Below are positions 19,855 through 45,786 of a DNA stretch of 64,000 nt, piece by piece (the first letter of the stretch is position 1; every line of letters begins with the position of its first letter). Location of the stretch: contig NC_091471.1 in NCBI RefSeq assembly GCF_036971445.1, positions 109,864,001 through 109,928,000 of the forward strand, written 5' to 3'. This stretch comes from Narcine bancroftii. Taxonomy: Eukaryota. The notes under the pieces are model-generated. The model worked only from the letters and a program-made list of their open reading frames with translations. It made no database searches and had not been told where the DNA came from. Position numbers and translations under genes: made by a program.

Positions 19855-21346
19855 TTTTTTTTTTCTTTGGCTTGGCTTCGCGGACGAAGATTTATGGAGG
19901 GGGTAAAAAGTCCACGTCAGCTGCAGGCTCGTTTGTGGCTGACCAGTCCGATGCGGGACAGGCAGACACGATTGCAGCGGTTGCAAGGGAAAATTGGTTG
20001 GTTGGGGTTGGGTGTTGGGTTTTTCCTCCTTTGCCTTTTGTCAGTGAGGTGGGCTCTGCGGTCTTCCTCAAAGGAGGCTGCTGCCCGCCAAACTGTGAGG
20101 CGCCAAGATGCACGGTTTGAGGCGTTATCAGCCCACTGGCGGTGGTCAATGTGGCAGGCACCAAGAGATTTCTTTAGGCAGTCCTTGTACCTTTTCTTTG
20201 GTGCACCTCTGTCACGGTGGCCAGTGGAGAGCTCGCCATATAATACGATCTTGGGAAGGCGATGGTCCTCCATTCTGGAGACGTGACCCATCCAGCGCAG
20301 CTGGATCTTCAGCAGCGTGGACTCGATGCTGTCGACCTCTGCCATCTCGAGTACCTCGACGTTAGGGGTGTGAGCGCTCCAATGGATGTTGAGGATGGAG
20401 CGGAGACAACGCTGGTGGAAGCGTTCTAGGAGCCGTAGGTGGTGCCGGTAGAGGACCCATGATTCGGAGCCGAACAGGAGTGTGGGTATGACAACGGCTC
20501 TGTATACGCTTATCTTTGTGAGGTTTTTCAGTTGGTTGTTTTTCCATACTCTTTTGTGTAGTCTTCCAAAGGCGCTATTTGCCTTGGCGAGTCTGTTGTC
20601 TATCTCATTGTCGATCCTTGCATCTGATGAAATGGTGCAGCCGAGATAGGTAAACTGGTTGACCGTTTTGAGTTTTGTGTGCCCGATGGAGATGTGGGGG
20701 GGCTGGTAGTCATGGTGGGGAGCTGGCTGATGGAGGACCTCAGTTTTCTTCAGGCTGACTTCCAGGCCAAACATTTTGGCAGTTTCCGCAAAGCAGGACG
20801 TCAAGCGCTGAAGAGCTGGCTCTGAATGGGCAACTAAAGCGGCATCATCTGCAAAGAGTAGTTCACGGACAAGTTTCTCTTGTGTCTTGGTGTGAGCTTG
20901 CAGGCGCCTCAGATTGAAGAGACTGCCATCCGTGCGGTACCGGATGTAAACAGCGTCTTCATTGTTGGGGTCTTTCATGGCTTGGTTCAGCATCATGCTG
21001 AAGAAGATTGAAAAGAGGGTTGGTGCGAGAACACAGCCTTGCTTCACGCCATTGTTAATGGAGAAGGGTTCAGAGAGCTCATTGCTGTATCTGACCCGAC
21101 CTTGTTGGTTTTCGTGCAGTTGGATAATCATGTTGAGGAACTTTGGGGGACATCCGATGCGCTCTAGTATTTGCCAAAGCCCTTTCCTGCTCACGGTGTC
21201 GAAGGCTTTGGTGAGGTCAACAAAGGTGATGTAGAGTCCTTTGTTTTGTTCTCTACACTTTTCTTGGAGCTGTCTGAGGGCAAAGACCATGTCAGTGGTT
21301 CCTCTGTTAGCGCGAAAGCCGCACTGTGATTCTGGGAGAATATTCT
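19855..21346 (-). mobile_element. Young 5'-truncated RTE (BovB-like) LINE with uninterrupted RT ORF (21290-19917, 457 aa)
   Basis: FVDLTKAFDTV, GVKQGCVLAPTLF, LLFADD, C-terminal CNRCNRVCLSRIGLVSHKRAC; short 3' UTR with A-rich tail; TSD CAGAATC at 19848-19854 and 21347-21353. Confidence 0.95.
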
Positions 21347-21479
21347 CAGAATCAGATGTGTGCTAAACAACAAAAATGGTTCCTGATGAGCAAAATAAAA
21401 CTATTTCATAACCGGTAGACAGGTCAAAGCTCTGCAGTCTTGTCATATCGCACCATGAAAAACGGTGGTCAATTAAACG

Positions 21480-22011: not shown

Positions 22012-22016
22012 GGATC

Positions 22017-25000
22017 TGTAATGATATGGATTGTACATAGTCATTGACTGGTAAAGGCATGGGCTGGCCCACCCCCCTGATGACACTCTCCCCTGGACTC
22101 CTCCCCTGTGGCCTAGGCCATAAAGGTTGAGCCACCTCTCCCCTCACTGCACTTCCTGAGCTTGGATCTGGGCCAGCTCAAGTCTTCTGTACAATAAAGC
22201 CTGTCATTCCCCTCAGTCTTTGTCCTTGTGGTTATTGGGGAAACTGGTAGTGCCCATCAGTTTATTGTACAGAACTAGATGCTGCTGCACCCCAATCGAC
22301 GAGAGGTGGATCCCCAAGTCTTGGGTGCATCAGAACTCTTTGAACAGTGGATCAGTTGTTTTAACAACTTCCTTGAGGCCGCTGCTGGAGTGGTCGACTC
22401 GGATGAGAAGAGGCTGAAAGTTCTACAGGTAAGAGTCGGTCAGAGGGCTTTTCAGGCCATCAGAAGCTGTGCGACCTACACCGAGGTGATGGCTGAGCTA
22501 CAGGCACTATACAAGCTCAAAATCAACGAGGTCTACTACCGCCACCTCCTGGCATCTAGAAAACAGCAGCCTGGTGAGTCAGTAGAAGAGTTCATTCGAG
22601 CCCTGATCACACTGGGAAAAGACTGTTTGGGGAACCCCACGGTCCCTGTGCCAGGGTTCCAGTGTGTGGAAGACCCGATCCAGGATGCTTGTGTGTCGGG
22701 AGTGAGGTCAGACTATATCCGACAACGTCTCTTCAAGGAGGATCAACTACCGCTGAAGTAGGTGATCCAACTGGCCAGGACTTTACACTCAGCCCAGCAT
22801 CACATGGAGTTGATCGCGGGCAGAAGTGGGCCTACCCCGTACGTGCCATCACTAGGGCCATCATCCTGGGAGTCAGTGTCGGGGACGGCCGACCCGACCG
22901 CGGGTGCAGTGGCACTGAGATCCATGAGATGCCACTTGTGTGGGCAAGCAAGACACCTATGATGATTCTGCCCTGCAAAGAGAGCTATCTGCTCGGGCTG
23001 TGTGAAAAAGGGCCATTATCAACAGGTCTGTAGGTCCAGAGACTCATCCCAAAGCAGCTCGGTGTGTATGGCTGAGGAGCTTCTGGTGCCGGCCGTGAGC
23101 GTGGTAAGGGGAGGTGCCATCTTACTCGCTGCCGCCCCCATGCTTTACACAGTGGTTGCCCTCATCGGCAAAGTCACTTCCACCACCGATGACACAACTT
23201 CCGCCTTCTTCATCAATGTTGGCAGCATGGTCAACATGGAGGCTGCCATCTTGGACATGGGCCTCCCCACCAACGACGAAGATGATGCACTCATCCTGGC
23301 ATTGATCACCTTGGACCAAACCAGCCCTCTTCCGATCACGAACTCCATGATGCAGATCGAGGTGAATGGAGACAAATCAAACTGCTTCTTTGATAGTGGC
23401 AGTACCAAAAGTTTTATCCACTCCGAGGTGGCCCGTAGGCTCTCGATCCCTGTATGGCCGATGACTGGATCCATGTCGATGGTGGCGAAAGACAGGGGAC
23501 TTGTATCCGAGGGTACTGTGTGGCATTTCTGATGGTGGGGGGGAATGTTATAATGACTTTTTGTTGTTGGTCATGCCCCAGCTCTGTGCACCGATCCTCC
23601 TTGGCCTCGACTTCCAGAGACAGTTCAAGAGTGTGATGATGGCGTTCACTGTTTGCAAACCACAGGACCCCCCCTCAAATCCAGTCCCAGCCTCTGGCAC
23701 TGACCTGCAGCCTCACTGCCCTGCGGGTGGCCCCTCCATCACTATTTGAAAACCTCACCTCGGACTGTAAACAGATTGCCATCAAGAGCATTCACTACAG
23801 TGCTGAGGATATGGCGTTCATCCGGGCCAAGGTTCAGCGACTCTTGGTGGATGAGGTCATAGCCCCTAGCTCCAGCCCCTAGAGGGCACAGGTCCTCATG
23901 GTCAAAGGGGCAGGCAAACCCCAGATGGTGACTGACTACAGTCAAACCATCAACCGCTTCACTCAGTTGGATGCATACCCTCTACCCCGGATAGCCGACT
24001 TAATCAACAAGGCGCACAATACAATCTTTTTGACCATTGACCTCAAGTCAGCTTATCATCAACTTCCTTTTCACCCGAGCGACCGGCTCTACGCGGGATT
24101 TGAGGCCGATGGCAAACTTTTTCACTTCCTCTGGGTGCCTTTTGGTGTTTATAATGGTGTCTCTGCTTTTCAGAGGGTCATGGATCAGATGGTGAAGGAG
24201 CAGAAGCTGACAGCGACATTCCCATACCTTGACAATGTCACGATCTGCGACCATGACCAGCAGGACCATGATGCAAACCTCGCAAAGTTCTTAGATATGG
24301 CCAAGTCTCTCAACTTGACGTACAATAAGGACAAGTGCATGTCCAACACAGACCGCCTGGCCCTTCTCCGTTGCATTGTGGCACATGGTGTCATTGCCCC
24401 GGACCCCAACCTCATGTGACGTTTTATGGAGCTGCCAGTTCCAAACACCCTAAAGGCGCTGAAGAGGTGCCTGGGGCTGTTTTCCTATTGTGTACAATGG
24501 GTGTCCAATTTTGGCCGACAAGGCCCACCCCCTGATTAAGTCCATAACTTTCCCGTTGTTGGTGGAAACCCAAGCTGCATTCTATCAGATCAAAGGAGAC
24601 ATCGCAAAGGCCACGATGCATCCCGTGGACGAGTCCATCCTGTTTCAGGTGGAGAGCGATGCCTCTGACTTTGCACTGGCCGCCACTCTTAACTAGGCAG
24701 GCAGGCCAGTAGCATTTTTCTCCCACACCCTGCACGGTCCTGAGGTACGGCACTCCTTGGTCGAGAAGGAGGCACAAGTGATCGTTGAGGCAGTGTGTCA
24801 CTGGCGACATTGCCTGGGTGGTAAACGGTTTACCCTGCTGACAGACCAGCGGGCTGTGGCCTTCATGTTTAATATAAAATAGTGGGGTAAAATCAAGAAT
24901 GACGTTTCTTAGGTGGAGGGATCGAGCTCTCCACCTATAATTACGACATCTTGTACCAACCAGGTAAACTCAATGATCCCCCAGATGCGCGCATCTCGAT

Positions 25001-26462
25001 TGCCTCCAGGCCCTCCACGACAGACTGTGGCACCCCAGAGTCACAAGGTTGTACCACTTTATCAAGACTCGGAACCTGTCGTACTCCGTTGAGGTCGTCA
25101 GGTCCATGACCAGAAGCTGCAAGATCTGCGCTGAATGTAAACTGCAGTTCTACCGACCCGAAAAGACACATCTTATTAAGGCCACAAGCCCTTTTGAACG
25201 GCTCAGTGTTAATTTCAAGGACCCCCTACCCACCACAAATAGGAATGCTACTTCCTGATGGTGGTGGACGAGTTCTCCAGGTTCCCCTTTGCTATTCCCT
25301 GCCCGGATATGACCTCAGAGATCGTAATTAAGGCGCTGCGAAGCATCTTCAACCTGTACGGGTACCCCAATTACATCCACAGCGATAAGGGGTCTTCATT
25401 CATGAATGAGGAACTGTGACAGTACTTCCTGGCCAGAGTCATAGCCACCAGCAGGACCACCAGCTATAACCCCAGGGGTAATGGCCAGGTGGAAAAGGAG
25501 AATGACACTGTCTGGAAGGCAGTGCTCCTAACCCTTAGGTGTCCCACTAGCAGGACGTTCTGCCGAAAGCACTCCATGCCATCTGATCTTTCCTGTGCAC
25601 CGCAACTAATACCACCCCGCATGAATGCTTGTTTGCTTTTCCCTAGGAGATCGGCAAATGGTCCCTCCATTCCTCCTTGGCTGGCAACCCCAGGGCTGGT
25701 CCTACTATGGAAACATGCGAGGGGCCACAAGTCGGATCCACTGGTGGAAGCGGTACACCTCATACACACCAACCCTCAATACATGTTTGTGAGGTACCCC
25801 GATGGCCACGAGGACACTGTTCCTATCCGAGACCTGGCGAGGGCCAGAGATCCCGAAACTGTGCTGTCCACCACCAACCACCCCACGGAGCAGACCACCC
25901 CACACTGGAACTCAATACTAGATGCAGAGCTGCCCAGCTCTCCTCTCCAGGAGTTGGTCCCCATGGGAGACATCAAACTTCCCTCTTTCCCGGGAGCCCT
26001 CAGTCATCACCCCAACCCAGACTGTTCCCCCCTGGGACTGCTTCCCCTCCCGAACAGCAGAGCACGGACACACTTACTCCCCGTCAGTCCCGCAGATAGA
26101 GGAAGTCGCCGGTGTGACTGAATCTCTAGTTAAACAGAAAATGTTTTTTGTCTGTAGGTCCCACCTCTGGAAAAAGTGGAGGGGGGGGGGGGGGGTTCTG
26201 TTTAAAATGAAGGAGTAAATGTAATGATATGGATTGTACATAGTCATTGGCTGGTAAAGGCATGGGCTGGTCCACCCCCTGATGACACTCTCCCCTGGAC
26301 TCCTCCCCTGTGGCCTAGGCCATAAAGGTCGAGCCACCTCTCCTTTCACTCCACTTCCCTAGCTTGGATCTGGGCCAGCTCAAGTCTTCTGTACAATAAA
26401 GCCTATCGTTCCCCTTCAGTCTTTGTTCTTGTGGTTATTGGGGCAACTGGTAGTGCCCATCA
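22017..26462 (+). mobile_element. Full-length decayed Gypsy LTR retrotransposon (4446 bp): LTRs 22017-22259 and 26220-26462, gag-PR-RT-RH-INT broken by stops and frameshifts
   Basis: 243-bp TG..CA LTRs, 5-bp TSD GGATC both sides, purine tract at 26204-26219; gag with degenerate knuckles, protease FDSGS, RT DAYPLPRI/IDLKSAYHQ/YLDN, RNase H VESDASDFALAATL, integrase C..C and HSDKG. Confidence 0.95.
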
Positions 26463-26759
26463 GGATCACTGTTAAAGGCAAAAGTACTTTTATTTGGGAT
26501 CATATCTCACTACAAAGGAGGTAATTATGATTGCTAGTGATTGATCATCAGAGCATTATCCTCATTTCAACCATCTTCAGCTGTTTCTTCAATGACCTAC
26601 CATTCAGATCAGAAGTGGGGATAATTGTTAATATTTGCATGATGTTCAATTCAATTTACAACTCCTCAGCAAATGACACAGCAAGGCCTGGACAACATAT
26701 GGTCATGGGCAGGTAACTTTGGCACCACCAGAGTCCCAGGGATGGTCACCTCCAACAAG

Positions 26760-44386: not shown

Positions 44387-45786
44387 AGGCTTTTTCAGGT
44401 GCATTCTTGGCTAAGAATGCGCCTGAAGAGCACAGAAGCGTCCCTTTAAATTGCAGTTCAGGTAGCAGTGTTGAAAGCGCAGTGCTGGCCACTTGAAAGG
44501 ACAGCTGCGGCAGGATGTGCATCTGAGTGCATTTCGGCTCCTGTCCCTTGGGCTGTCAATTCAGGATGGCTGGCTGTCAGTTGGAACAGCCAGCGCGGGC
44601 TATCAGCGCGTGGACGTCCCATGCAGGATGTTCCCACACTGTGGGGCGGCTGGCGTGGGCTGTCCCCACACTGTCAGGCAGCCGGCGCAGGTTGTCCCCA
44701 CACTGTCAGTTGGCCGGGGTGGGCTGTCAGTGCAGGGACAACCCGCGCGGGATGTCCCCACACTGATCCCGCTACCCTACTCTCTCCCCCCTCATGAATC
44801 CAGTCCACACATTGTGGGGTGGCCAGCGCGGGGGTACGGGGGCTTGAGTGGCTGGCGGGGGAGGAGGCTGGAGCACCGGTGGGGGAGAAGGAGGCTGGAG
44901 CGGCCGGTGAGTGAGTATGGGGGCTGGAGCTGCTGGTGGGGGAGGAGGCTGGAGCACTGGTGGGGGAGAAGGAGGCTGGAGCGGCCAATGGGTGAGTACG
45001 GAAGCTGGAATGGCCGGCGGGGGAGGAGGCTGAAGCATCAGTGGGTGAGTACAGAGGCTGGAGTGGCCAGCGGGGGAGGAGGCTGAAGTGGCTGGCGGGT
45101 GAGTATGGGGGCTGGAGCAGCCGGGAGGGGAGGAGGCTGGGGCACCGGCGGGGGAGGAGGCTGGGGCACCGGCGGGGGAGGAGGAGGCTGGAGTGGCCAG
45201 CGGGTGAGTACAGGGACTGGAGCAGCCGGCGGGGGAGGAGGCTGGAGCACCGGCAGGGGAGGAGGCTGGAGCACCGGTGGGTGAGTATGGTGGCTGGAGC
45301 AGCCGTTGGGGGAGAAGGAGGCGCTCGAGTCGAGTACCGGCATTGTTTTGGCCAACCCCCTTCTCCCCTACCGGACGCTCTATTCCCCTTCTTCCCACTC
45401 CCGAAATCAGTAACGACAGTGTGGGGACAGCCCGCGCTGGCTGCCCGACAGTGTGGGGACTGATTTCATGAGTGGGGAGAGAGCTGGGCAGCGGGATCAG
45501 TATGGGAATGTCCCCGCGCTGACAGCCCACGCTGGCTGCCCGACAGTGTGGGGACTGGGAGAGGAGCTGTCAGGCACTGGGCAGTTGATTGTCATCTGAA
45601 TGTAGCTGCTTTTAGGTGGCTGCATTCAGATGGCTGGGGAGGCAACTGTGCCGTGAGGATTATCCCTTTCAGAGGAGGGTTACCAAACTCGCCTGGCAGG
45701 CGCCTCCTGCACATTCCCGTGGCCTTCCCTTCCTTGCCAAAATATGTGGCTTAACAAGTAGGTCAATTGGCCACCTGAAAGAGCCT
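44387..45786. mobile_element. Non-autonomous DNA transposon, PIF/Harbinger-like, 1400 bp, with GC-rich internal tandem repeats
   Basis: TIRs AGGCTTTTTCAGGTG and CACCTGAAAGAGCCT, 3-bp TSD AAT, cleanly interrupts the CR1; subterminal ccccacactgtc and gacagtgtgggg inverted motifs. Superfamily assignment is inference. Confidence 0.8.

Follow-up and report, generated by a model that had tools for sequence, protein, structure and literature searches.

To our knowledge, self-priming of reverse transcription has been demonstrated only for Tf1 of fission yeast and inferred for relatives of Tf1 and for a group of plant Copia elements. Elements described as self-priming in passages of PMC7175516, PMC4600332, PMC6317226, PMC2864245, and PMC5445492 include Tf1, Tf2, Tj1, the Tf1/sushi group, Tcn1, and the TAR elements. 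The mechanism for Tf1 is presented in a section of PMC7175516; there and in PMC4600332 the initial 11 bases in Tf1's RNA are described as paired, and RNase H as cutting between bases 11 and 12.

The locus described here is a Gypsy element of Narcine bancroftii. The stretch of DNA analysed, referred to as the window, comprises 64,000 nucleotides of contig NC_091471.1 (positions 109,864,001 to 109,928,000), and all coordinates are positions within it. A first-pass annotation of the window had proposed that a single RNA duplex, formed between the 5' LTR and the sequence behind it, serves both as a tRNA-independent primer and as a suppressor of premature polyadenylation. As presented below, the duplex is real and lineage-wide, and its most likely reading is Tf1-like self-priming in a non-chromoviral lineage of animal Gypsy elements. 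No description of self-priming was found for this lineage in the open-access literature searched. Some animal Gypsy families are reportedly called self-priming in Repbase, which may lower the novelty.

Organization of the Element

The decayed element occupies positions 22017-26462 on the plus strand. Its LTRs are 243 bp in length, begin with TG and end with CA, and are located at 22017-22259 (5' LTR) and 26220-26462 (3' LTR). The 5-bp target duplication GGATC is found on both sides, at 22012-22016 and 26463-26467. The gag-pol region (22279-26121) is broken into several frames with stops and contains two CCHC-like knuckles, a protease, a reverse transcriptase (RT, 23883-24419), and remnants of RNase H and integrase. 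Matches to protease and RT were found in this coding region, and the closest solved structure to the RT is that of Ty3 RT. A purine-rich tract (26204-26219) lies ahead of the 3' LTR. The TG...CA LTRs, the target duplication, and the order PR-RT-RH-IN place the element in Ty3/Gypsy. Relative to other copies, approximately 21 nt are missing from the window copy directly behind the primer site.

Full-length relatives mostly contain one ORF of ~1200 aa. The compact element with a single ORF of this size, two CCHC knuckles, and short LTRs presumably fits Cigr-1, a clade assignment offered as a lead only. Cigr-1 is placed under Mag in the supplement of PMC6238403, and clade context for this lead is provided in parts of PMC6238403 and PMC2774666. 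The literature consulted yielded no mention of how these clades prime.

Other features were noted in the window. A 481-aa open frame on the minus strand (19917-21362) encodes a non-LTR-type RT with a C-terminal zinc knuckle and apparently lacks its 5' part; we take it to be RTE-like. The segment 30336-31289 is built of a 42-bp unit repeated approximately 23 times with 90% similarity, and several frames are open there on both strands (a 14-aa repeat). A degenerate GC-rich tandem array with periods of 24-105 is located at 44821-45322.

Complementarity between the LTR and the Post-LTR Sequence

The perfect 14-nt complementarity reported in the first-pass annotation was confirmed. The putative primer-binding site (22261-22274) is perfectly reverse-complementary to an LTR segment, the primer arm (22185-22198), which ends in the poly(A) hexamer AATAAA (22193-22198). 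A 1-nt spacer (22260) separates the end of the LTR from the site. The duplex of the window copy extends at neither end. When 92,869 random 26-mers from the window were compared with the window LTR, no perfect complement was longer than 11 nt.

The 3' LTR carries the arm once more (26387-26400). The LTRs differ, as had been noted, and the alignment of 244 columns contains 12 substitutions and 2 gaps. With divergence this low, chance alone would leave a 14-nt stretch identical with P = 0.44. That the arm is the same in the two LTRs, previously put forward as evidence, therefore carries no evidential weight. The folding energy of 22140-22300 is ordinary (z = -0.99, with 33 of 200 shuffles equally good). 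In the predicted 5' RNA, 13 of the 14 duplex pairs have probabilities of 0.88-1.0. The support for the duplex is its position and its covariation, not its stability.

The window copy has no TGG-type tRNA primer site behind the 5' LTR, in agreement with the earlier description. Of 89 copies from the same genome, a single one has a TGG no more than 8 nt from the LTR end, and no TGG-type site was seen in any of 23 related families. Against 32 host tRNA genes, an incomplete set representing 10 amino acids, the site matches 3-5 nt at most. An abundant Gypsy family of the same genome with integrase before RT (L280, L283, G000; 16 stretches) was used as a control. It has a TGG-type site after a short spacer and only a 6-nt self-complement, as read from a small sample, the 2 stretches of 16 in which the 5' LTR end is clearly defined. 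On the basis of its domain order (L280, L283), the control family is presumably Gmr1-like.

Priming by a mature tRNA or a tRNA half, the complementarity being incidental, is considered very improbable given the missing TGG, the short tRNA matches, and a site that differs from one subfamily or family to the next in step with the LTR arm. In its favor are the incompleteness of the tRNA set and the half-tRNA priming of Copia lineages that is mentioned in PMC6317226.

Covariation among Genomic Copies

A search of the N. bancroftii genome with the LTR and the gag start returned 3,988 candidates. Thirty loci were taken, of which 4 are 3' or solo LTRs and 26 were used. These were combined with 80 of 150 RT hits. 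Eight of the 80 RT-anchored stretches lack the gag start; 9 of the 98 segments obtained were dropped because they contain no LTR, leaving 89 distinct copies.

The earlier annotation had considered that the complementarity might be absent elsewhere in the family; pairing holds in the 89 copies. Watson-Crick pairing accounts for 1066 of the 1146 ungapped cells across the 14 pairs (93.0%); a further 21 cells are G-U, and 59 are mismatched. Permutation of the sites among the copies (2000 permutations) gave a mean of 79.1% paired and a maximum of 82.5%. For the variable part of the duplex, 507 of 574 cells are paired, and slid registers give 30-208 of ~500-570. Two to four Watson-Crick types, transversion pairs included, are present in each of 7 of the 14 duplex columns. 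The arm types track the subfamilies in a tree that was built without the duplex columns. One pair in a group of 52 copies is polymorphic between C-G and A-T, and discordance at this pair is seen in 7 of 42 copies (Fisher 1e-4 for the association among non-independent copies). Because the copies are related, the permutation and Fisher values overstate independence.

Nowhere in the LTR is diversity higher than in the first 8 nt of the arm (0.24 versus 0.11-0.17), and the hexamer is nearly invariant (diversity 0.017). An inner R/U5 stem, stacked on the primer duplex, is predicted within 22199-22253 (22199-22212 paired with 22237-22253). It varies mainly by G-U pairs, has one column with two Watson-Crick types, and resembles an ordinary RNA helix. 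G-U cells amount to 160 of 1066 in this stem versus 19 of 574 in the 5' part of the arm. This difference would fit a primer site that is rewritten from a retained, copied primer. A primer that stays attached and is copied into cDNA is described in a passage of PMC11042837.

Related Families in Other Hosts

With an alignment of 49 relatives as the query, 80 metagenome loci and 9 loci from a genome collection were retrieved. The 48 loci with a match starting near the gag start were kept; 4 were too short upstream, and the other 44 represent 26 families. The RTs of these families are 39-56% identical to that of the window element. The duplex is present in 23 of the 26 families, with letters that differ between families and with the polarity needed for priming. 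No duplex was seen in the remaining 3 (L043, L054, and L113), where the upstream DNA is short or rearranged.

The spacer between the terminal CA and the site is 1 nt in 22 of the 23 families, and a second LTR confirmed the LTR ends in many of them. Young copies, with LTRs that are 99-100% alike, include L033, L036, L038, and L042. The arm is located 21-87 nt upstream of the site and has a TAAA-like ending followed by RCC. Over the last 11 duplex positions 250 of 253 cells are paired, a share that is inflated by the selection of family sites by best score. Arms pair with their own sites at 12.6 of 13 positions versus 8.0 when swapped between families, and 6 of 506 swaps reach 12. The same sites were recovered in an unanchored search with shuffles (null means ~6). 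A stem beside the cut site predicted below has a length of 4.3 in the 23 families versus 3.1 when shuffled; it is above the null in 19 families (p <= 0.05 in 5) and is conserved in the N. bancroftii copies.

Among named proteins, the closest matches come from sharks and rays; next in rank are those of corals, insects, spiders, a shrimp, a fluke, and a nematode. In a quick tree of lineage members only, built with no outgroup, the window RT is placed together with proteins of sharks and rays, amid the other families. One weak locus was obtained in one search of viral contigs for the lineage and none in another. Animal-type retrotransposons of the lineage were also found in contigs filed under bacterial genome bins (L112-L119) and are probably host DNA.

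Poly(A) Signal and Transcript Start

The transcript material consisted of contigs from three runs of one study that were guessed to be RNA. Contigs spanning from upstream of the arm into gag were excluded as incapable of showing a start. In related copies, A-tails begin ~24 nt downstream of the hexamer (three records from run X2, guessed to be RNA), and the DNA at this position is not A-rich. The equivalent position in the window is approximately 22222. In these relatives the hexamer thus appears to act as a functional poly(A) signal.

A canonical hexamer is present in the arm of 15 of the 23 families. In the other 8 the duplex is kept without it, and two loci (L041 and L042) have a separate hexamer downstream. 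With the hexamer canonical in only 15 families, the arm frequently coincides with the poly(A) signal but need not do so, and occlusion would be optional. The proposed suppression of 5' polyadenylation by the duplex thus stays plausible as a function and fails as an obligatory one.

The duplex might instead be a regulator only, hiding the 5' poly(A) signal while synthesis is primed by some small RNA, by part of a tRNA, or by a protein. The hexamer inside most arms, its near invariance in the N. bancroftii copies, the A-tails that follow it in related copies, and the strong pairing in the predicted 5' RNA are all compatible with regulation. A regulator would have no need of the 1-base distance from the LTR end, however, and would not account for the families that keep the duplex without the hexamer or carry a second one downstream. 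In the 3' LTR, too, the hexamer is predicted to lie in a weak local hairpin. Because the site varies from family to family, it cannot be matched by any one fixed host RNA. Regulation without self-priming is therefore regarded as unlikely.

A TATA-like CATAAA had been noted upstream of the arm, and the motif CATAAAG does begin at 22119 (22119-22125). It is present in 74 of the 89 copies, and an initiator-like word follows at 31-32 nt in 44 of 65, with two words distributed by subfamily, so that the observation effectively amounts to two events. In the window this word is at 22148-22153, 32 nt from the TATA-like motif, with a predicted +1 at 22151; its assignment relies on the initiator consensus. 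The spacing of the two motifs, which applies to the subfamilies of this genome only, suggests a start near 22151, ~34 nt before the arm. The earlier suggestion that the primer lies internal to the transcript start may accordingly hold for these subfamilies; the pattern is not seen in other families. A small hairpin is predicted at 22159-22178, in the putative leader just 5' of the arm, and is partly kept among the copies.

Other families have no TATA motif at a fixed distance. They prefer A-G-T at positions -11 to -9 (19, 19, and 18 of 23), a word that resembles an initiator, and beyond the last 11 positions their pairing drops to 21, 18, 15, 15, 15, and 8 of 23. These features favor an exactly Tf1-like arrangement in which the transcript starts at or just before the arm and the primer is its first 11-17 nt, with nothing internal. 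In this genome, however, pairing and double changes continue to -13/-14, which implies that those bases should belong to the RNA, and the TATA-like and initiator-like motifs point farther upstream. We give the Tf1-like start somewhat less than an even chance; it concerns the start only, and its probability is shared with the explanation preferred here.

Splicing upstream of the arm was considered and is not supported. Tracts resembling splice acceptors before the arm seemed frequent on inspection, but a content of 12 of 15 pyrimidines was reached in 5 of the 23 families (p < 0.05 in 2), and no splice joint within the LTR was found among those listed for the contigs guessed to be RNA. Pyrimidine tracts ending in CAG are present 25-45 nt before the arm end in L065, L067, L099, L109, and L117 and are weak relative to shuffles.

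Proposed Mechanism

Tf1-like self-priming, with a cut directly after the AAA of the arm in a lineage devoid of a chromodomain, is judged to be quite probable. The position, polarity, and covariation of the duplex support tRNA-independent self-priming, as first proposed, well at the level of sequence. The element RNA would fold back such that the arm pairs with the site behind the 5' LTR. By analogy with Tf1, the RNA would be cut just past the final AAA of the arm (22198/22199), likely by the RNase H of the element. From the 3' OH so released, minus-strand synthesis could proceed through the spacer, U5, and the remaining ~24 nt of R behind the predicted cut, a length that should be enough for strand transfer. 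The retained primer would then be copied into the new primer site, and such copying would allow the arm to change fast and yet remain Watson-Crick paired. Masking of the 5' poly(A) signal by the same duplex could be an optional addition.

The primer could also derive from the arm of the 3' LTR, on the same or a co-packaged RNA, cut after AAA. The presence of the arm in both LTRs permits this, and pairing that reaches beyond any start site on its upstream side would then be accounted for. The 5' arm, however, is only 62 nt from the site and is predicted to fold locally with it, and cutting the 3' copy would presumably remove the R needed for strand transfer on the same molecule. A primer from the 3' LTR is accordingly thought improbable, and the 5' leader is preferred as its source.

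A more extended version of the self-priming model is also conceivable, and we hold it only tentatively, as rather doubtful. Throughout an animal-wide non-chromoviral lineage, one duplex would hide the 5' poly(A) signal while transcription proceeds, and a subsequent cut immediately 3' of that signal would release an internal, capped leader of ~48 nt to act as primer; copying would rewrite the site, keeping arm and site in lockstep without G-U intermediates.

If self-priming is correct, tRNA-free priming would be common in animal genomes and would either have arisen again or be ancestral. Re-emergence versus ancestry of self-priming is a question raised in a passage of PMC3601003. The fixed anatomy (a duplex of 11-17 bp, AAA at the cut, and a 1-nt spacer) predicts the exact base of the cut. 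It would also explain elements that annotation tools list as having no primer site, and would offer a naturally occurring example of a single structure serving both priming and the choice of poly(A) site.

Comparison with Known Systems

In retroviral poly(A) hairpins of the HIV-1 type, the hexamer is kept base-paired at the RNA 5' end, as in the element described here. Unlike the partner in those hairpins, its partner lies outside the LTR, at the 5' end only, and occupies the primer site.

The Saci-2/lennie clade of flatworms likewise consists of single-ORF animal Gypsy elements, with primer sites described as variable in a passage of PMC12471100. Target duplications of 4 bp, ORFs of mostly ~1400 aa, and a tRNA-Leu site are reported for this clade in part of PMC4558846. 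Membership was rejected for the present element, which has a 5-bp duplication and no tRNA site.

For the Tcn1 chromoviruses and the TAR (Houba, Osr-1) Copia elements, self-priming was inferred from complementarity, as it is here (PMC6317226, in part). Unlike the present lineage, these are fungal and plant lineages of other clades or of another superfamily.

The closest resemblance is to Tf1 and Tf2 of S. pombe, Tj1 of S. japonicus, and the Tf1/sushi group, which also have no tRNA site and a primer site complementary to their own LTR RNA. The polarity is the same as in the Tf1/sushi group, and a further stem, as in Tf1, may lie next to the predicted cut. Unlike the Tf1/sushi chromoviruses, the 7 relatives scanned have neither a chromodomain nor an SH3_Tf2-1 domain. 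No chromodomain was seen behind the integrase in the precomputed domains of the 240 matches listed, and none of the 16 chromodomain hits in the genome has pol nearby. The lineage differs from Tf1 in its duplex of 12-17 bp, its 1-nt spacer, its possibly internal primer, and an arm terminating in a TAAA-type motif that in many cases doubles as the poly(A) signal. In contrast to the Tf1 group, it occurs in animals, with hosts that range from corals and insects to sharks and rays.
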